64,000 nucleotides of DNA, from positions 448,718 to 512,717 of the forward strand of contig JAQCEY010000001.1 of assembly GCA_027620075.1 (NCBI GenBank). The letters are read 5' to 3'. Below are positions 24,510-57,383 of this stretch, piece by piece. The translations under genes were made by a program, and so were the position numbers. The notes beneath the pieces were generated by a model, which saw only the letters and a list, made by a program, of their open reading frames with translations, was not told the origin of the DNA and searched no databases. The number at the start of each line of letters is the position of its first letter. Position 1 is the first letter of the stretch. This DNA comes from Pseudomonadota bacterium (GTDB lineage: Bacteria > Pseudomonadota > Alphaproteobacteria > Rickettsiales > UBA6187).

Positions 24510-24657
24510 GGCATTGCTAACTAAACACAGCTTTTGTCATACTGAATTTATTTCAGTATCTTTTTGTCCAATAGCAGATGCTGAAACAAGTTCGGCATGA
24601 CGCAAATATTAACAATTTTGATATTAACTACAAAAACTATGTTTAGTTAACAATGCC
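24510..24657. mobile_element. 148-bp MITE-like element with 26-bp terminal inverted repeats and an 8-bp target-site duplication
   Basis: Left TIR ggcattgctaactaaacacagctttt (24510-24535) matches the reverse complement of the right TIR aaaaactatgtttagttaacaatgcc (24632-24657) at 23/26. It is flanked by a direct ATAATAAA at 24502-24509 and 24658-24665. Internal hairpins are atactgaa-N5-ttcagtat and atgctgaa-N5-ttcggcat. Confidence 0.7.
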
Positions 24658-46059: not shown

Positions 46060-46881
46060 TTATAATTCAAATGCGACTGCACAACCTGAACCGGCAGTAG
46101 CAGTATTAGTACCGTCAAGATTATAAGTATCAGGATTAGGAGCAGTATCTATACAGTCGGTCGCAGCAGCACCGGCAACCCCCACACCGACTACAGCACC
46201 CGTAAGAGGTTGACCATCATCAATTTTGTCATCAATACCCTGAACATCCTTAGCATCAAATATCAATCCGTTAGCCATACCTGTACCGGCTGACTGCACA
46301 CCACCGATAAGAACAACATTCCTATTAAAATCCCTTCCACCGGCAGCAGCACCGTCACCGGCAGTGGCATCAGAAGTCCCATCGTCATACACAATAGTAA
46401 TACCCGCACCGGTATATTTAGAAGCAGGTATTTTAATATTTAGATCCGAAGTTGCAACGGCAGTAGCGTTACTAGGAAAGAACGAACCCGGTGTTAAATC
46501 CGCCAATTGAAGATGCTTCCATGCCATATATGATTCGATAGCACCGCCTACACTGGCAAGCACAATCTGCTTATTACCGTTACCGTTACACTCTGCCTGC
46601 ACGCCCGCACCCGTTCCTGCGGCATTACAGCCTTGGGCTGCGGCAGGCCAATATGCAAAAGCATTATTAAAGTCACCCGGCAATGCATCATATTCCAGTT
46701 TAAACGCATTCATAGCCAGCTTTACCTGATTATGCTCGCTTACGACAGAACGAAGCTTTGCCTGCTTTACCAGAGCCTGCCCCCCCACAACACCTGCTAC
46801 AATCAAACCTATAATAACAATAACAATTGAAAGCTCTATAAGAGTAAAGCCCTTGTTTTTATTTTTAATATTCATAAACAC
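46060..46881 (-). CDS. Prepilin-type N-terminal cleavage/methylation domain protein (type IV pilin / pseudopilin-like), orphan, Gly/Ala-rich
   Basis: KG|FTLIELSIVIVIIGLIVAG. About 70 N-terminal residues are closely similar to the ORF at 8222-8899, with shared NGNGN[KR] and ID.KIDDG motifs. Confidence 0.8.
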   Translation of the reverse strand: MFMNIKNKNKGFTLIELSIVIVIIGLIVAGVVGGQALVKQAKLRSVVSEHNQVKLAMNAFKLEYDALPGDFNNAFAYWPAAAQGCNAAGTGAGVQAECNGNGNKQIVLASVGGAIESYMAWKHLQLADLTPGSFFPSNATAVATSDLNIKIPASKYTGAGITIVYDDGTSDATAGDGAAAGGRDFNRNVVLIGGVQSAGTGMANGLIFDAKDVQGIDDKIDDGQPLTGAVVGVGVAGAAATDCIDTAPNPDTYNLDGTNTATAGSGCAVAFEL

Positions 46882-51345: not shown

Positions 51346-51373
51346 GTTTATTGAACACTCTATAGCCCTTTAA

Positions 51374-51519
51374 ATTATAGTATTTACACTTTTGTACACG
51401 CATGATTGTCATCCCCGCTTTATGCGGGGATCTACCGTCAATTTAAATTAGATCCCCCTATAATTGCCTACGACAATTCGGGGGATGGCAGCAGTATTGA
51501 AAAGTGTGAATACTATAAT
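51374..51519. mobile_element. 146-bp MITE-like element with 20-bp terminal inverted repeats and two GC-rich hairpins
   Basis: Left TIR attatagtatttacactttt (51374-51393) matches the reverse complement of aaaagtgtgaatactataat (51500-51519) at 19/20. Internal hairpins are atccccgc-N5-gcggggat (51411-51431) and atccccc...gggggat (51452-51486). No clear TSD. Confidence 0.6.
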
Positions 51520-51530
51520 CGACAAATCCG

Positions 51531-52112
51531 TTAATTCTTAACAACAAAATCAATGCCGCTTATTATATCACTGTTATTGACGATGCTTACCAGTTCTTCG
51601 TGCAATCCGTCTTCGCTAAATTCCGTCAAAGACTCATCGGCAATTTTAACGACATACTGCCCCGGCACTACACCTGAGAAAATATAAAAGCCGTCAAACT
51701 CGCTTTTTGTTTCCTTAACCACCTCCCCTTCATTGTTAACCAGTTGCATAGTGATTCTTGCTATACCTTTAGTATCTTCACCCTGCTCCAAATATACCGT
51801 TCCATCTATCTCCGTAGTCAGATAAACCGGAAAATCAAGCTCGTTCATGGCTCCGGGTCTTGTTACAACATGGTATCCTTCCACCTTAGGCATCCAAAAC
51901 GGGTCTTCCAATGTTGTAATATCTATCCTTACGGGTGAATTCTTATATGCTTCTATATTCGGGATAACCACCGGAGATGTATCATTTCCTTTGAATTTAC
52001 CGTTTTCACTTATAAAACCGACATCAGGTATAACTTCGTCACCATCGTCAAAAATACCGTTATAGTTATTATCAAGGAACGCCCTTAGACTCAAAGCACC
52101 CTCATTTGACAT
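51531..52112 (-). CDS. Usher C-terminal fragment with SdrD-B-like and CarboxypepD_reg-like beta-sandwich repeats (same frame as 52149-54215)
   Basis: No signal peptide. FLDNNYNGIFDDGDEVIPDV is an SdrD-B-type motif, and DGTVYLEQ...ITMQLVNNEGEVVKETKSEFDGFYIFSGVVPGQYVVKI is a CarboxypepD_reg-type motif. The frame stays open up to the TAG at 52149-52151. Confidence 0.6.
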   Translation of the reverse strand: MSNEGALSLRAFLDNNYNGIFDDGDEVIPDVGFISENGKFKGNDTSPVVIPNIEAYKNSPVRIDITTLEDPFWMPKVEGYHVVTRPGAMNELDFPVYLTTEIDGTVYLEQGEDTKGIARITMQLVNNEGEVVKETKSEFDGFYIFSGVVPGQYVVKIADESLTEFSEDGLHEELVSIVNNSDIISGIDFVVKN

Positions 52113-52148
52113 ATCCCTATCACTGAAGAACCATCTATCTTGGCGCGG

Positions 52149-54215
52149 CTAATGCCCCATTGAGAAAGAAAGTCTTGTTCCTGCCGTGATATTATCCTGA
52201 TCGTCAAAACCGGCAACGGTACTTAAGGTAAAATATTTAAAGCGTTTATTGAGCGATATGTTAAGCGAGGTAATATCCTCCCCTACCAAATCCTTTCTTA
52301 TATTAAACCTTGCATTTGTTTCACGGGTTATTTGCTTTTGTCCTATAAAGTTTATACTTGTTATCTGCGACTCGGGAGTTATATCATAATCGGCACTCAA
52401 CCTTAATGAGGCATTTTTATATCTGGCACGGACAGACAAACTACCGCCTGACGTATCCGTAATCGTTGAAGAATCTTTTGTTGACGTATAATCGACATTA
52501 TTAGTCAAGCCTATACCGAAGAATGTAGTCGAAAGTCTGTTACTAAAGGTGCTTATTTCCCTTTCATTTTCAAATACTTCATGCTCTGTGCTAAAACGGT
52601 AAGCAATACCTGAAGAATTAAGGCTGCTTATCCTTCCGTCCAAGTCTACCTTGCTTGTCATAAGGCGTTGTTGTGAGCCTGATTCTTCTATTTCACTTAC
52701 AAAATCATCATAAAATGCCTGCCTTGCCCTGACATTTATCTCCTTTATCTTGGCATTTGCCAATATCTCGCTTGCCCACCCTCCATCTGTCGAGTCATAT
52801 ACAAAGTTAACATCGGTAAGCATTCCGGCAGAGAACAGCTTATTAAAACTATTTGTTACCCCTATTGATTGATAATTATGGAATTTTCCATCTTCTAACG
52901 GGGTGCGGATAAACCCTACACTACCGGTAACCGAAGAAGTTAATCCGTAATCAAAATCGGCTACATACCTCTCCCCTAATTCATGCCTTATTATATCATC
53001 ATCTTCATCTATACCGAAAATCGTTTCTGACTTTCTATCGACTGAAAATCGATAAGTAAAATCACCTTTCGGCAAAATTGAGTTATCTATAAGATAAGTT
53101 TCCGTTTTTTCCTTAACCTGACCTTGCGGACCATATGACACTATCCTGAATATATTGTTACCGAAAAAGATAGGAACGTCATTAAATTCATATCTGCCGT
53201 CATCGCCTACTATTTGAAAATCAACCAGAACACCGTTCCTGTAGATTTCAACCTCCCAACCGGGTTGCTCGTCACCTACAAAATTTGTTGAGTCAAAGTC
53301 ATCTGCAACATCAAGGTCTTTATTTGAAACGGTGAATCCCGTTCCCCTGCCTCTTGACGTAACCATTGACACGGGAACCGACGTAATGTCACCGAATGAA
53401 TATGATTTAGCGTCAGCTTTACCGAGCAAGCCTCCGTCTTCACTGCTACGCCCCATATTGAACCTTAATGCAGTCAGCGAGTCCCTGTTATCACCTGCTA
53501 CGGTCAGTTGTGCGGTATGGTAGGCAAGATCACCCTGAGATATAACCGAATATGTAGAATTATGCGGAGAAGCACTTTGATTGCTATAATCGTAACCCAA
53601 ATCAAAATCAACGAACGGATATGAAGCAATTTCGTAAGGTTTTTTGATGACATCATAACCCTTGTCGTCAATTCCCATCTTACGTAAACTTTTAGTGCGT
53701 ATTTTTTCTCTTTCCATACGCTCCTGAAAAGGAAGACTTTCACGGGGCTTTACAAACAAGACCAAGTCAGAGAAGTTTAGCTCAAGATCGACAGGAAACC
53801 ACTGCGAAAAATAAGAGGAATCCACATAAAGATCATTAAAACCTTTGCTGATTATCCTGCCGTCCAGTTTTTTCTTCACCCCTTCTACAACAACTTCGCC
53901 TGCTGCCACATCAAGAACGAAAATCCTATTTTCCTTTATAAACCAACCGCTAGCCGATTCATTTTGATAATCAACTTTCACCTGAAATTCTAATATATTT
54001 GCAAGCATACCCAGAGGTACCAAAAAACCTCCGTCATACTGGTAAACTTCCACTATCTCACCCGTACCGAGTTTATTAACAAATATCTCCGTAAGGACTA
54101 GGTTGTCTTCTGAAAGCTCTATCTTTTGGTAACCGGTATTTTCAGTCGCATAAACGTTTGAACAAAAAAAGCCCGTTATACTAAACATTAATATAAAAAA
54201 TATGCTACGGCACAT
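52149..54215 (-). CDS. Fimbrial outer-membrane usher, N-terminal 688 aa, ending at an in-frame TAG
   Basis: Signal peptide (FFCSNVYA|TEN), an usher N-terminal domain (VNKLGTGEIVEVYQYDGGFLVPLGML), a plug-like segment (GWEVEIYRNGVLVDFQIVGDDGRYEFNDVPIFFGNNIFRIVSYGPQG) and a long beta-rich region. It lies downstream of a PapD-like chaperone. Confidence 0.75.
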   Translation of the reverse strand: MCRSIFFILMFSITGFFCSNVYATENTGYQKIELSEDNLVLTEIFVNKLGTGEIVEVYQYDGGFLVPLGMLANILEFQVKVDYQNESASGWFIKENRIFVLDVAAGEVVVEGVKKKLDGRIISKGFNDLYVDSSYFSQWFPVDLELNFSDLVLFVKPRESLPFQERMEREKIRTKSLRKMGIDDKGYDVIKKPYEIASYPFVDFDLGYDYSNQSASPHNSTYSVISQGDLAYHTAQLTVAGDNRDSLTALRFNMGRSSEDGGLLGKADAKSYSFGDITSVPVSMVTSRGRGTGFTVSNKDLDVADDFDSTNFVGDEQPGWEVEIYRNGVLVDFQIVGDDGRYEFNDVPIFFGNNIFRIVSYGPQGQVKEKTETYLIDNSILPKGDFTYRFSVDRKSETIFGIDEDDDIIRHELGERYVADFDYGLTSSVTGSVGFIRTPLEDGKFHNYQSIGVTNSFNKLFSAGMLTDVNFVYDSTDGGWASEILANAKIKEINVRARQAFYDDFVSEIEESGSQQRLMTSKVDLDGRISSLNSSGIAYRFSTEHEVFENEREISTFSNRLSTTFFGIGLTNNVDYTSTKDSSTITDTSGGSLSVRARYKNASLRLSADYDITPESQITSINFIGQKQITRETNARFNIRKDLVGEDITSLNISLNKRFKYFTLSTVAGFDDQDNITAGTRLSFSMGH

Positions 54216-54268
54216 GAACTTTTAATCCGTTTATAGATTAAATCTTTTGAATTTAAGTTGTGTATATT

Positions 54269-54313
54269 TGTCATTCCACGAATTTGTTTAGTAAAACAAA
54301 TTATAAGATGACA
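54269..54313. repeat. Intercistronic palindromic hairpin between the chaperone and usher genes
   Basis: tgtcattccacg-aatttgttt-agta-aaacaaatt-ataag-atgaca. The inner 9-bp stem is perfect, the outer tgtcat/atgaca arms are inverted, and the gtcattcc head is shared with other repeats in the window. Confidence 0.55.
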
Positions 54314-54345
54314 CCGATTAGTAAAATAAATTCAAAGTTACTAAA

Positions 54346-55179
54346 CTATAGTTCTATTTTTTCACTAGCTAATATCTCGCCGCCTTCTTTGGCTTTGGCT
54401 TTGTACTGCACCTCAAGAGTTCCTCCATCGATACTTACACCTTCGGGAACGTCCAGCATCACCTTGAATCTTCTATTTTTATTAGGTGAATATACCGCCA
54501 GACCCCCCATAGATTTCAGTATGAGTTCCGTTCCGTCTTTAGCTTTATAAAGAACTATAATATCACCGTACATTGAGCTGTTACCGGTTCTGGTTATATC
54601 AAACTCAACACTTTTAATGCCGTCATCATTTGAAACAAGTTTAAGGTCGTTTATCTGTCCTGTTGCAGAAATTTCCCCCTGCCTTATTATTACCGGTATT
54701 GTAACTCCGAAATTCGCCTTAATACTGATAATTAACGAGTTATCAGTCTGCTCACTGTTTTTTTCACGTTCGGTAGTATCTTCATTAACTATCTTGAAAT
54801 TCAAATGCGACCTATACTCACCGTCTTCAAGATCGGCAGGTTTTCTTGCCAATATCCTTACATTCTGGTGTTCACCGGGTTGTAAAGTGATTCTGCGTGG
54901 AGATATCCTTAACATATCGGTAGCGAATTTTTCACCTTCGATTGCTTCCTCATCGTCACCTATAGGCACTATAGTACCGTCCTCCTGCATTCTCCTATTC
55001 ACTATGGAAATGGCATATGTTCCTTCCACATTACCGTTATTTGCAACGGATACCGATGCACTACGGGTTCTTCCGTCCAGCAATACTCTTGTAGGTGTGA
55101 TTAAAAGACCCGGTTTTTCTTGTGCGAATGCCACCTCTGAGAACGCTAGGAAAACTATTAAAAAAAGTACCTTTTTCAT
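54346..55179 (-). CDS. PapD-like periplasmic pilus chaperone
   Basis: Signal peptide, then LLITPTRVLLDGRTRSASVSVANNGN and RISPRRITLQPGEHQNVRI, the two hallmark strands of fimbrial chaperones. The size suits a two-domain chaperone. Confidence 0.75.
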   Translation of the reverse strand: MKKVLFLIVFLAFSEVAFAQEKPGLLITPTRVLLDGRTRSASVSVANNGNVEGTYAISIVNRRMQEDGTIVPIGDDEEAIEGEKFATDMLRISPRRITLQPGEHQNVRILARKPADLEDGEYRSHLNFKIVNEDTTEREKNSEQTDNSLIISIKANFGVTIPVIIRQGEISATGQINDLKLVSNDDGIKSVEFDITRTGNSSMYGDIIVLYKAKDGTELILKSMGGLAVYSPNKNRRFKVMLDVPEGVSIDGGTLEVQYKAKAKEGGEILASEKIEL

Positions 55180-55191
55180 TAAAATTCCTTC

Positions 55192-55677
55192 TTAATCGTA
55201 ATTTATATCAATGTTATAACAAGGAGTAAGGACTCCGCCGGGCGTACTTGAATTAATCACCAAGGTGGCTCCATATGTCAGATTTTGCCCTCTCCATGCA
55301 GGAGGAAGTCCGTTAGCTGAGTTTATAAAGTTAACCCCGGAATAATTAGCGACAAACCTTCTAAGCTGCAGTCCCAAGGCAGAATTACTTGAGCATTCGT
55401 CAAATGATATCTGTATATCATTCCTTCTGCTTCCCGATATTCTATCACGACCTGCCGATACGGCAGTAGTATCAAGCATTATCGCCGTTGTTCCGCCACC
55501 TACGGAACCGTTTCTTCTAACTACGATACTTACATTACCCGAAGTTGGCTTTGCCACTTTGCCAAAATTGAGTTCACGGATATTTACCGCCCGCTGTGCG
55601 TAAGAATCGATAGATATGAGAATAAACGCAAATGTAATAAATGCTGTAATAATTTTATATTGCATTAACTTAAACAA
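55192..55677 (-). CDS. Secreted pilus subunit 3 (DUF4402/SCPU-like)
   Basis: Signal peptide (SIDSYA|QRA), LNFGKV motif, and a C-terminal YGATLVINSSTPGGVLTPCYNIDINYD shared with the ORFs at 55986 and 56770. Confidence 0.7.
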   Translation of the reverse strand: MFKLMQYKIITAFITFAFILISIDSYAQRAVNIRELNFGKVAKPTSGNVSIVVRRNGSVGGGTTAIMLDTTAVSAGRDRISGSRRNDIQISFDECSSNSALGLQLRRFVANYSGVNFINSANGLPPAWRGQNLTYGATLVINSSTPGGVLTPCYNIDINYD

Positions 55678-55789
55678 CTCTATCTTTTGTATATCTTATA
55701 AATACTAACAAAAGAATAGGAAAGTTCAACAATATATAGTAGTTAGAATGCAGTTATACACCACTATTTTGATATTTTATGGAATTTGC

Positions 55790-55977
55790 TATAGGAACCT
55801 CTACAAAACTCAAAAAACTTACTCTCCCCTTGAGGGAGAGTTAAAAACACGAAGTGTTTTTGTGAGGGGTGGAAACTTGCAAGTGTTTTTTATACCTGCA
55901 TGTGTCGCCCCCTCCCTAACAAAGAAGATACTGAAACAAGTTCAGTATGACAAAAACTATGTTTAGTTAGCAATAAC
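55790..55977. repeat. Composite intergenic repeat inside the pilus cluster
   Basis: ctctccccttgagggagag, aaaacacgaagtgtttt, gtgaggggtgg and ccccctccct match modules at 31123-31215. tactgaaacaagttcagtatgacaaaaactatgtttagttagcaat matches the right half and TIR of the 24510 element. Confidence 0.6.
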
Positions 55978-55985
55978 GATAAATA

Positions 55986-56480
55986 TTATTCGTAATAGAT
56001 TGCAATGTTGAAGTCAGGCTCATAATAACCTGATTGTGTATCTCCGTTAACCTTAAGGGTAGCACCTAACTTAAGCTTAGCGTCCCGACCCGGAGCAGAC
56101 CTAACAATATTGTTATCCCCGTTATCTGCTCCGTTCGAGTAGCTCACAACGAAATCATCAATCTTCACTTTAGACTCTTGTGTGCTTTCACTTGCTACGG
56201 ATATTTGTATCGAGTTACTTGTTGAACCGCTTATCCTATACTCGCTTTCAGGCATTTGTCTTACATATTCCTCTTTGCCGCCATTGTTTTTTTTCTGAAA
56301 CAACTTTTGGAAAAAAGAAACCGAAGTATCAATGCTCAATGTTTCAAAACCGCTTTCCTGACTAAAAACCGTCGGTTCAACTATTTCTACACTTGCAACA
56401 GCGCTAGCCTTAATGGCTTTTGCTTCAAATGAAGCAGAACACATTAATACCGGCAGCAATGTTGCGTATAAAAGTTTCAC
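55986..56480 (-). CDS. Secreted pilus subunit 2 (DUF4402/SCPU-like), GTG start
   Basis: Signal peptide (SFEAKA|IKA) and a C-terminal LGATLKVNGDTQSGYYEPDFNIAIYYE. Confidence 0.65.
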   Translation of the reverse strand: MKLLYATLLPVLMCSASFEAKAIKASAVASVEIVEPTVFSQESGFETLSIDTSVSFFQKLFQKKNNGGKEEYVRQMPESEYRISGSTSNSIQISVASESTQESKVKIDDFVVSYSNGADNGDNNIVRSAPGRDAKLKLGATLKVNGDTQSGYYEPDFNIAIYYE

Positions 56481-56715
56481 TAAAAATATCCCCTAACCAT
56501 TTACAAATACATAAATAATATACATATTTATATATATACGGTCGCAAGCATCGTGCCAGATTCGTTACAATCGGTGTGAATGCAGTATTTAGGGATAATA
56601 ATGGGATATTCTTGTTAAATAAAGATTTTTTCAATTTTTAGTATAATTTTTTGTACAGTTTAACAATTTATACTTTAGAATAACTAATAAAAATATAAAA
56701 GACATATTCGCCAAA

Positions 56716-56746
56716 CAAAAAAAAGAGCTAGAAGCTCTTTTTTTTA
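56716..56746 (-). terminator. Rho-independent terminator/attenuator directly after the first pilin gene
   Basis: aaagagct (56722-56729) pairs with agctcttt (56733-56740), flanked by an A-run and a T-run. It lies about 25 nt downstream of the stop at 56770. Confidence 0.65.
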
Positions 56747-56769
56747 AAGTTATTGGAAGTTATTTTTTC

Positions 56770-57282
56770 TTAGTCGTAAGTTACTTCAACATCATAACTT
56801 GGGCTATGTGTACCGGTTGCAACTGTTGAATCAACGGTAAGTGTTGAACCGATATTAAATATGTCCGTTCCGCCTGTTAATGTAGCACCTGTTAAAGACC
56901 CACCTGATAATGCTTGACCACCGAATGTTCCTGTAAAGCTACCTAGGCTTAACCCTGTAATAGCAGTTGTATCTGTAATGGTTATAGAAACCGTTTCTGT
57001 AGAAGCACCTGAAATATTTACGGTTCCTTCCGATCCTGTAGTGTCGATATAATCTGCCGTACCTGCTAATACGCCTGTATCGCTTACCACTGCTGTAACC
57101 GAACCTGATGTCGGCTGAACGATTTTACCGAAATCCATATCGTTGTTAGCAACCACTTGTAACGGAGCCACTATATCAACTGTTGCGGTGTTATTTACTG
57201 TAACTGCATTTGCTGCCGAATAAGAAAATACAACACCTGTTAAAACCGAACCTGCTAATAATTTTTTAATAGAACTTTTCAT
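56770..57282 (-). CDS. Secreted major pilus subunit candidate (DUF4402/SCPU-like), Thr/Gly/Ser-rich
   Basis: Signal peptide (SYSAANA|VTV), MDFGKIV motif, and a C-terminal IGSTLTVDSTVATGTHSPSYDVEVTYD. It is the first gene of the cluster and has its own terminator. Confidence 0.75.
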   Translation of the reverse strand: MKSSIKKLLAGSVLTGVVFSYSAANAVTVNNTATVDIVAPLQVVANNDMDFGKIVQPTSGSVTAVVSDTGVLAGTADYIDTTGSEGTVNISGASTETVSITITDTTAITGLSLGSFTGTFGGQALSGGSLTGATLTGGTDIFNIGSTLTVDSTVATGTHSPSYDVEVTYD

Positions 57283-57354: not shown

Positions 57355-57383
57355 ACTGTACCATGTTTTTGACACACTGTCAA
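57355..57383 (-). promoter_or_regulatory. Candidate sigma-70 promoter of the pilus cluster with a palindromic operator over the -35
   Basis: On the minus strand: TTGACA (57383-57378), a 17-nt spacer, then TACAGT (57360-57355). The -35 is half of the perfect palindrome TTGACA-cac-TGTCAA (57369-57383). Confidence 0.45.

Follow-up and report, generated by a model that had tools for sequence, protein, structure and literature searches.

The 64,000-nucleotide (nt) stretch of DNA analyzed here (the window) carries, at positions 51531-57282, a cluster of six open reading frames (ORFs) that all lie on the minus strand in a single orientation, as a first-pass annotation had reported from the ORF list of the window. 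The cluster is probably a chaperone-usher-type system for a surface fibre, a member of a family that is divergent and uncharacterised, and a stop codon in its usher gene has probably inactivated this copy. Among the adhesive fibres of Gram-negative bacteria, chaperone-usher pili are the principal kind. Read along the minus strand, the cluster begins with three small subunit genes, namely subunit 1 (56770..57282; 170 amino acids [aa]), subunit 2 (55986..56480; 164 aa) and subunit 3 (55192..55677; 161 aa), followed by a gene for a PapD-like periplasmic chaperone (54346..55179; 277 aa) and a gene for a usher-like outer-membrane protein. The N-terminal part of the latter (52149..54215; 688 codons) encodes a signal peptide, an N-terminal domain, a barrel of ~24 strands and a plug, and its in-frame continuation beyond the stop (51531..52148; 205 codons) encodes two C-terminal domains, the second of which is SdrD_B/transthyretin-like; within this continuation, an ORF of 193 aa can be read from ATG 52112 (51531-52112, minus strand). 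The chaperone gene starts 12 bp past the stop of subunit 3, and subunit 3 itself is 161 aa long when read from TTG 55677 and 157 aa when read from the alternative start ATG 55665, as in the ENA gene call. A search of NCBIfam assigned none of the six proteins to a family. Signal peptides and cleavage sites, here and below, were assigned by eye and by a crude rule only.

Conserved gene order of DUF4402 clusters

A single peptide pattern from the plug domain of the usher-like protein was found in at least 598 species-level genomes. The best 80 of these at least 598 loci (about 80 species) were used for a comparison of loci, in which hidden Markov models (HMMs) of the window proteins served to score the ORFs. 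With few exceptions, complete loci of the 80 species displayed the same order, in which one to seven subunit genes (S) precede a chaperone gene (C) and an usher gene (U): 23 loci were SSCU, 18 were SCU, 8 were SSSCU and 4 were SSSSCU, and the other layouts consisted of the same genes in divergent arrangement or cut by contig ends. Alphaproteobacteria were represented among the 80 loci by Rickettsiales-labelled metagenome-assembled genomes (MAGs), Rhodospirillales, Micavibrio, Sphingomonadales and Kiloniellales, and Gammaproteobacteria by Vibrio, Pseudoalteromonas, Marinobacter and Cellvibrio; further loci came from Nitrospinota, Nitrospirota, Acidobacteriota, Zixibacteria, Myxococcota, Desulfobacterales, Chlorobiaceae and Akkermansiaceae. 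A scan of 1.84 billion representative proteins for the usher type returned 2,851 clusters (50% identity) at E <= 0.001, and 1,402 clusters at E <= 1e-30.

Pfam lists DUF4402 (PF14352), the family to which the subunits belong, without an assigned function, and its tie to a chaperone and a usher-like pore is established here by gene order and fold. The statement of the first-pass annotation that this subunit type is uncharacterised agrees with a literature search in which no paper mentioning DUF4402 or PF14352 was found; likewise, nothing on the DUF4402 family was found in the literature on archaic chaperone-usher pili and usher-like proteins.

Two of the loci carrying the cluster, L018 and L046, belong to MAGs of Micavibrio sp., an obligate epibiotic predator, and are compatible with the idea that the fibre could serve attachment to prey; a search for literature linking Micavibrio and DUF4402 clusters found none. 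A complete subunit-chaperone-usher cluster was also present on a contig labelled Candidatus Saccharimonadales (L063, DATKKS010000263.1). Members of this group are generally thought to have no outer membrane, and the contig is probably mis-binned.

The DUF4402 subunits

Subunits 1, 2 and 3 matched Pfam DUF4402 with 48.7, 33.8 and 41.1 bits, respectively, against a gathering score of 25.2, and 98 of 101 related subunits matched the family above or near the cut-off. The match of subunit 2 is confined to residues 79-163, in the C-terminal half of the protein. The C-terminal strings that had been quoted for the three subunits are exact, and the pattern derived from them is that of the family consensus, G-[AS]-T-L...V-x-V-x-Y-x (V-T-V-x-Y-x at the end); subunits 1, 2 and 3 of the window terminate in Y-D, Y-E and Y-D, and a few relatives end on the aromatic residue itself. 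The motif [FL]-x-FGK-[IV], on the other hand, had been ascribed to every subunit, but as written it is present only in subunit 3 (LNFGKV), while subunit 1 has MDFGKI and subunit 2 does not contain any FGK.

An AlphaFold2 model of subunit 1, made with a 23-sequence alignment, had a predicted local distance difference test score (pLDDT) of 85 and was all-beta, with residues 27-41, which follow the signal peptide, left unstructured. When this model was compared with the PDB by Foldseek, the top matches were almost all chaperone-usher pilins (probability up to 1.00), and included CfaB, PapA, FimF, FimA, FimG, Caf1 and the pilin domain of PapG, in accordance with the pilin-like fold expected of the subunits. 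Searches of the PDB with the sequence of subunit 1 yielded nothing useful, and the subunit family profile had no match there.

In 140 DUF4402 proteins from the related loci, hydrophobic and polar residues alternate in the sequence leading up to the invariant FG motif, the hydrophobic ones at positions -20, -18, -16, -14, -10 and -8; a donor strand that runs into the first core strand would have such a pattern. The N-terminal extension of subunit 1 is ~15 residues long and reads VTVNNTATVDIVAPL, and that of subunit 2 reads IKASAVASVEIVEP; the extensions follow the pattern A-x-A-x-[AV]-x-[IVL], in which small and hydrophobic residues alternate. The distance from the predicted cleavage site to FG is a constant 24 residues in most subunits and 8-13 residues in a second class, and in the window it is 24 residues for subunit 1, 22 for subunit 2 and 10 for subunit 3, which has no N-terminal extension. 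Subunits of the short class made up 22 of 67 chaperone-proximal subunits versus 4 of 71 elsewhere (Fisher p = 5e-5), and adjoin the chaperone in about a third of loci, and single-subunit loci nearly always have the long N-terminal form.

Because a subunit without a donor strand fits only the distal end of a polymer built by donor-strand exchange, subunit 3 is the likely tip subunit and would be the first to be assembled. With subunit 3 as the tip, no CsuE-like gene need follow the usher gene, and none does in the window, as had been observed from the ORF list. The position of subunit 1 at the head of the cluster and a hairpin after its gene (see below) fit a major subunit made in excess, and subunit 1 is probably the major subunit; subunit 2 may be an adaptor or another minor component.

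The largest array of subunit genes seen was in a Nitrospinaceae MAG (L010:2353-11100), in which seven tandem DUF4402 genes precede the chaperone and usher genes; five of the seven proteins are 163-168 aa long, and all have the 24-residue N-terminal spacing. Double-length DUF4402 proteins of 270-350 aa, with an extra N-terminal domain, were found at L044:5104-7000 and L006:13065-14006 and as P0128, P0134 and P0136. These may be two-domain adhesins; the window has none.

The periplasmic chaperone

The 277-aa protein matched PapD_N with 31.8 bits (cut-off, 23), PapD_N was matched by 49 of the 56 members of the chaperone family, and the first-pass identification of three DUF4402 subunits together with a PapD-like chaperone was thus borne out by scores above the respective cut-offs. 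The second domain of the chaperone is not recognised by Pfam PapD_C. In a search of the PDB, the chaperone family profile retrieved FimC and CupB2, at E = 0.6-2 only, and did not retrieve CsuC, and the sequence of the window chaperone itself gave no useful match. R31 of the chaperone is kept in 55 of 56 sequences and aligns with Arg8 of FimC; other conserved residues are R123 (53/56), R197 (56/56), Y230 and R236, and a strand of alternating hydrophobic residues (I151-I165) ends in the invariant P162. Since the position aligned with the classical Lys112 is basic in only 32 of the 56 chaperones, the anchor for the carboxylate of the subunit may be a hybrid of the classical and archaic types.

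Predicted fold of the usher

The large outer-membrane protein is identified as an usher at the level of fold only, through a model of its closest intact homologue, P0002, which is 881 aa long and 70% identical. The AlphaFold2 model of P0002, made with a 50-sequence alignment, had a mean pLDDT of 88.5. It consists of a beta-rich N-terminal domain (residues 26-144), a long helix (149-167), ~24 long beta-strands (188-676) and two C-terminal beta-domains (693-772 and 777-880); a six-stranded beta-domain, the putative plug, is inserted after the sixth long strand (296-362), and the most conserved motifs of the usher family, GWEVE[IL]YRNG and YGPQGQ, sit in this inserted domain. In the ushers PapC and FimD, the plug is likewise situated between strands 6 and 7 of the barrel. 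Consistent with this, the best 18 matches of the model in the PDB by Foldseek were all FimD or PapC ushers, with E-values from 4.8e-29 to 5e-14, followed by SdrD-type domains and then by LptD and other barrels.

At the level of sequence, the N-terminal domain of the usher gave weak matches to Cu_amine_oxidN1, and the last domain is SdrD_B/transthyretin-like; the 193-aa downstream ORF matched SdrD_B with 43 bits. The profile of the usher family matched SdrD-type domains in the PDB and no usher, and 4 of 50 homologues weakly matched Pfam Usher (best E = 0.0029). In the source databases, the homologues are named 'hypothetical', 'sporulation protein' or 'SD-repeat protein', and never usher. Many usher homologues, including P0144-P0176, are 1100-1500 aa long, with homology starting at residue 150-600, and some of these long proteins carry SPOR (peptidoglycan-binding) domains. 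To our knowledge, classical ushers do not have SPOR domains.

Relationship to archaic chaperone-usher systems

Chaperone-usher systems have been classified into three groups and six clades (PMC9452303). The first-pass annotation had described the cluster as archaic (Csu- or sigma-like) with SCPU-like subunits, but this assignment was not established: none of the three window subunits matched SCPU (PF05229) at E <= 1, CsuA/B was only the 42nd structural match of the subunit 1 model, after the CfaB, PapA, Fim and Caf1 pilins, the chaperone keeps Arg8, and the subunits have a penultimate Tyr. It is rather unlikely, although the strongest of the alternatives, that the cluster is a true member of the archaic (sigma, Csu-type) clade and that DUF4402 is a divergent branch of the SCPU subunit family. 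The order of subunit, chaperone and usher genes does resemble csuA/B-A-B-C-D, SCPU gave marginal matches in 4 of 101 related subunits (best E = 0.045), and the DUF4402 HMM is colinear with the PDB-verified sequence of CsuA/B, from the LNFGK motif to the C-terminus G-x-Y...V-T-V-x-[FY]; this match is a weak one, however, at 5.6 bits, which 11 of 2000 shuffles equalled, and an hhalign comparison of DUF4402 with CsuA/B gave a non-significant probability of 2% that covered the last 16 residues only.

The chaperone offers evidence of both kinds. Its invariant R123, on the presumed F1 strand, and the Arg and Tyr of its domain 2 could equal Arg89, Arg174 and Tyr196 of CsuC (PMC4654587), and the family occurs outside Proteobacteria, as archaic systems do (PMC4654587). 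However, archaic chaperones have no analogue of the classical Arg8, with which R31 aligns; they are without the Arg8/Lys112 pair, and the carboxylate is anchored by an Arg of strand F1 together with a Tyr and an Arg of domain 2 (PMC4654587). In addition, the chaperone profile never retrieved CsuC, in contrast to FimC and CupB2. Among the subunits, the aromatic residue at the C-terminus is terminal in CsuA/B but is followed by one further residue in those of the window, and a longer strand F that ends on aromatic-plus-one is a feature of classical subunits (PMC4654587). A two-domain CsuE-like gene is absent as well, since nothing follows the usher gene in the window, and the post-usher genes of a sister locus described below look like those of cytoplasmic or membrane enzymes rather than adhesins. 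Finally, sigma ushers were defined among recognisable usher sequences, whereas the window usher escapes Pfam Usher; the classification of Nuccio and Baumler was reportedly built from such recognisable sequences.

The cluster is filed here as a separate, unclassified family of the chaperone-usher type, the Csu/sigma assignment not being established. It is a serious possibility, if somewhat short of probable, that the DUF4402 clusters form a deep, hitherto unrecognised clade in addition to the six that have been named (alpha, beta, gamma, kappa, pi and sigma). This placement is suggested by an usher invisible to Pfam Usher, a chaperone that mixes classical and archaic anchor residues, a single-domain tip that has no donor strand and is encoded directly before the chaperone, and an occurrence across Alpha- and Gammaproteobacteria, Nitrospinota, Nitrospirota, Acidobacteriota, Zixibacteria, Myxococcota, Chlorobiota and Verrucomicrobiota.

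A nonsense codon in the usher gene

The 688-aa and 193-aa ORFs are read in the same frame, with a single TAG (52149-52151) between them. The joined usher has ~895 aa, and a search with the joined sequence returned ~150 homologues, nearly all of which consist of one protein (880-1100 aa) aligned over 90-100% of the query. In a library-wide scan, almost all of the best 150 homologues run well past the position of the stop in the window, and the usher gene is one ORF in every related locus examined, with the window copy as the sole exception. What had been annotated as an usher in two pieces is thus an usher by fold (FimD, E = 4.8e-29), although one that Pfam Usher does not match, and the two pieces belong to one gene split by a TAG. 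At the sister locus, L083, the position of the stop is occupied by GAG (Glu), and the protein reads ...SLGHEPRENRWFF where the window reads ...SMGH*PRQDRWFF.

The stop falls at the position of residue 676 of P0002, which is the end of the last long strand, so that the N-terminal domain, barrel and plug would be kept and both C-terminal domains would be lost. The C-terminal domains of FimD and PapC hold the chaperone-subunit complex during polymerisation, and by analogy the window copy is probably unable to assemble fibres. Non-synonymous divergence (pN) of the usher gene from its sister is 0.172 before the stop and 0.179 after it, the 205 codons downstream are open, and the part that they encode is 67% identical to the sister; the equal pN on both sides of the stop, together with the open codons, argues that the stop is recent. 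The system of the window has probably been freshly inactivated by a GAG-to-TAG nonsense mutation.

A cluster that is intact and functional, in which the TAG is an artefact of assembly or consensus, a minor allele or a codon frequently read through, is an improbable alternative. The 205 open codons past the stop, the identity of the downstream part to the sister, at a non-synonymous divergence equal to that of the part before the stop, and the intact state of all the remaining genes of the cluster are what such a cluster would display as well. However, the truncated 688-aa product was called on four contigs in ENA and Logan assemblies, that is, by two assembly pipelines, and no near-identical full-length usher was found among 5.8 billion protein clusters. 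Frequent readthrough is further opposed by the use of TAG as the stop of 10 other long ORFs of the window, including the chaperone gene, and by a search of the window for transfer RNA (tRNA) genes, which found none and hence no suppressor tRNA there; moreover, the downstream ORF from ATG 52112 has no signal peptide of its own. Genome-wide reassignment of TAG was ruled out, because TAG ends those 10 other long ORFs.

Genomic context and sister locus

The cluster is flanked by yidC-engB-argB on one side and by a gene for a 1169-aa oxidoreductase on the other, which are the flanks that had been described. In L083, the closest relative, which derives from another metagenome, three subunit genes, a chaperone gene and an usher gene lie between the same oxidoreductase gene and argB; identities to the window are 91% for ArgB, 89% for the oxidoreductase and 71% for the usher, with synonymous sites at saturation. 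Since L083 has the cluster at the corresponding site, it was already present in the common ancestor of the two genomes, which are well diverged, and is not a recent acquisition. The suggestion that it looks accessory is weakened by this relative; the comparison of the argB-to-oxidoreductase interval, which had been proposed, placed the cluster there in L083, but none of the 80 more distant loci shares the neighbourhood (argB, yidC or the oxidoreductase within 8 kb, 0/80). Between window and sister, the genes of the cluster have a pN of 0.16-0.35 versus a synonymous divergence (pS) of ~0.5-0.78, indicating purifying selection, and have diverged more quickly than the housekeeping genes beside them.

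Between the usher gene and argB, the sister has three extra genes (L083:12654-15990), the products of which are a small membrane protein, a methyltransferase-like protein of 467 aa and a multi-pass membrane enzyme of 562 aa, where the window (51346-51530) has a 146-bp element only; the difference is either a deletion in the lineage of the window or an insertion in that of the sister. The two large post-usher genes of L083 were considered as the missing adhesins and rejected, as by eye one product resembles a cytoplasmic, methyltransferase-like protein and the other an enzyme that passes the membrane several times.

The 146-bp element (51374..51519) had been described as a miniature inverted-repeat transposable element, and this is upheld by its 20-nt terminal inverted repeats, which are 95% complementary, by its strong fold (-56.6 kcal/mol, z = -7.9), and by one 92%-identical full copy and two partial copies elsewhere in a metagenome. 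Two small dispersed repeats (55797-55859 and 55922-55974) lie in the intergenic region between subunits 2 and 3 (55797..55974), which also contains a GC-rich hairpin (55821-55841; -14.5 kcal/mol, z = -4.2). A 53-nt inverted copy of one of these spacer repeats is present at 24513-24565 of the window (repeat region 24513-24606), and a 64-bp copy of another was found on a 621-kb metagenome contig (L096, 406-469), beside a copy of the 146-bp element (578-739). Dispersed repeats are therefore present in the cluster, as had been stated, but they do not interrupt it in the sense of breaking a gene, as all of them are in intergenic DNA.

Directly 3' of subunit 1, on the same strand, is a perfect 14-bp hairpin with an A-tract and a T-tract (56716..56746, minus strand; -13.2 kcal/mol, z = -4.6), as good a hairpin as which appeared in 0 of 200 shuffles; it may be terminator- or attenuator-like. 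A search with Rfam gave only a sub-threshold match to a small RNA, which lies over this hairpin. A consensus scan placed a promoter-like site, TTGACA-17-TACAGT with an upstream TG, at 57355..57383 on the minus strand, ~70 nt 5' of subunit 1, but such sites were not in excess over shuffled sequence in the same scan, which makes it weak evidence. Elsewhere in the window, beside cytochrome oxidase genes, a 273-aa protein (46060-46881, minus strand) matched N_methyl (PF07963; type IV pilin/pseudopilin-like), and would provide this genome with another type of component for a surface fibre or for secretion.

Discussion

The domains and folds assigned to the components, the conserved order of their genes, the stop within the usher frame and the pattern of the N-terminal extensions are shown here, and from these we infer donor-strand exchange, the roles of the subunits and the loss of function as follows. 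The three subunits would be exported by Sec, and their incomplete Ig-like folds would be capped in the periplasm by the 277-aa chaperone through donor-strand complementation. Chaperone-subunit complexes would then dock on the outer-membrane usher, the predicted parts of which are an N-terminal domain, a barrel of ~24 strands that is plugged between strands 6 and 7, and a pair of C-terminal domains, and the ~15-residue extension of each incoming subunit would replace the chaperone strand in the preceding subunit as the fibre is threaded outwards. In this genome, the stop just past the last barrel strand would remove both C-terminal domains of the usher, and most probably no fibre would be assembled. 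The first-pass annotation was right in kind, in that it proposed a chaperone-usher fibre with uncharacterised subunits, and is partly supported; the nonsense mutation and the syntenic relative had been overlooked.

Several points weigh against this interpretation. The window usher protein had no Pfam Usher match at E <= 1, and its sequence had no significant usher match in the PDB; the model that matched FimD and PapC is that of the 70%-identical homologue P0002 rather than of the window protein, and its template modelling (TM) scores to FimD are only 0.45-0.5, for which a differing arrangement of the domains is the probable cause. The Foldseek E-values of the subunit model are modest (2e-3 to 0.1), donor-strand complementation and exchange are proposed from fold, motifs and gene order, and the fibre is predicted here from sequence and models. 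With respect to the inactivation, the assemblies that bear the TAG may come from the same or related samples, and a GAG allele in the population or a low level of readthrough may exist. A system of the chaperone-usher type that makes no pilus, and exports DUF4402 proteins as a capsule- or coat-like polymer, for which Caf1/F1 antigen and the Myxococcus spore coat protein U are the models, or as non-polymerised surface proteins, is very unlikely: Caf1 is among the best structural matches of subunit 1, the subunits are small and single-domain and many loci have one subunit gene only, but the constant-length extension (24 residues to FG) and the separate class without it point to ordered, polar polymerisation.

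With the cluster read as a chaperone-usher-type fibre system, DUF4402 gains a testable function and the known range of the chaperone-usher pathway is widened. The family is a common, phylogenetically broad and sequence-divergent branch of this pathway that is apparently undescribed, and its range includes phyla whose adhesive fibres have hardly been studied, as well as predatory Micavibrio and Rickettsiales-like MAGs; cultured carriers exist in Parasphingorhabdus (P. flavimaris SW-151), Pseudoalteromonas (P. atlantica), Marinobacter and Vibrio (Vibrio sp. J1-1), and Marinobacterium arenosum is a further one. Of minor evolutionary interest is the usher of the window, which has probably been inactivated only recently and is intact in a relative.

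In comparison with known systems, the cluster shares with the archaic Csu (Acinetobacter) and CupE (Pseudomonas) systems the order of subunit, chaperone and usher genes, a wide phyletic spread, the weak colinear signal between DUF4402 and CsuA/B, and Arg and Tyr residues in both chaperone domains that possibly make up a two-domain carboxylate anchor (PMC4654587). It differs from them in having no SCPU match and no CsuE-like adhesin, in the penultimate position of the aromatic residue of its subunits, and in the retention of the classical Arg8. From the classical Fim/Pap systems (FimC/FimD and PapD/PapC), it differs in that no significant sequence match to Usher, Fimbrial or PapD_C was found, that the position aligned with Lys112 is basic in 32 of 56 chaperones only, that the usher has a Cu_amine_oxidN1-like N-terminal domain and an SdrD_B/transthyretin-like last domain, that the tip candidate is a single domain and not a two-domain lectin adhesin, and that the DUF4402 family extends far beyond beta- and gamma-proteobacteria. 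The features shared with the classical systems are a three-part make-up, in which pilins of predicted Ig-like fold that carry a putative donor strand at the N-terminus are combined with a chaperone of the PapD type and an outer-membrane usher, with FimD and PapC as the best structural matches of the usher model, a chaperone Arg aligned with Arg8, subunits that end on aromatic-plus-one, and a presumed tip that is the subunit without a donor strand.

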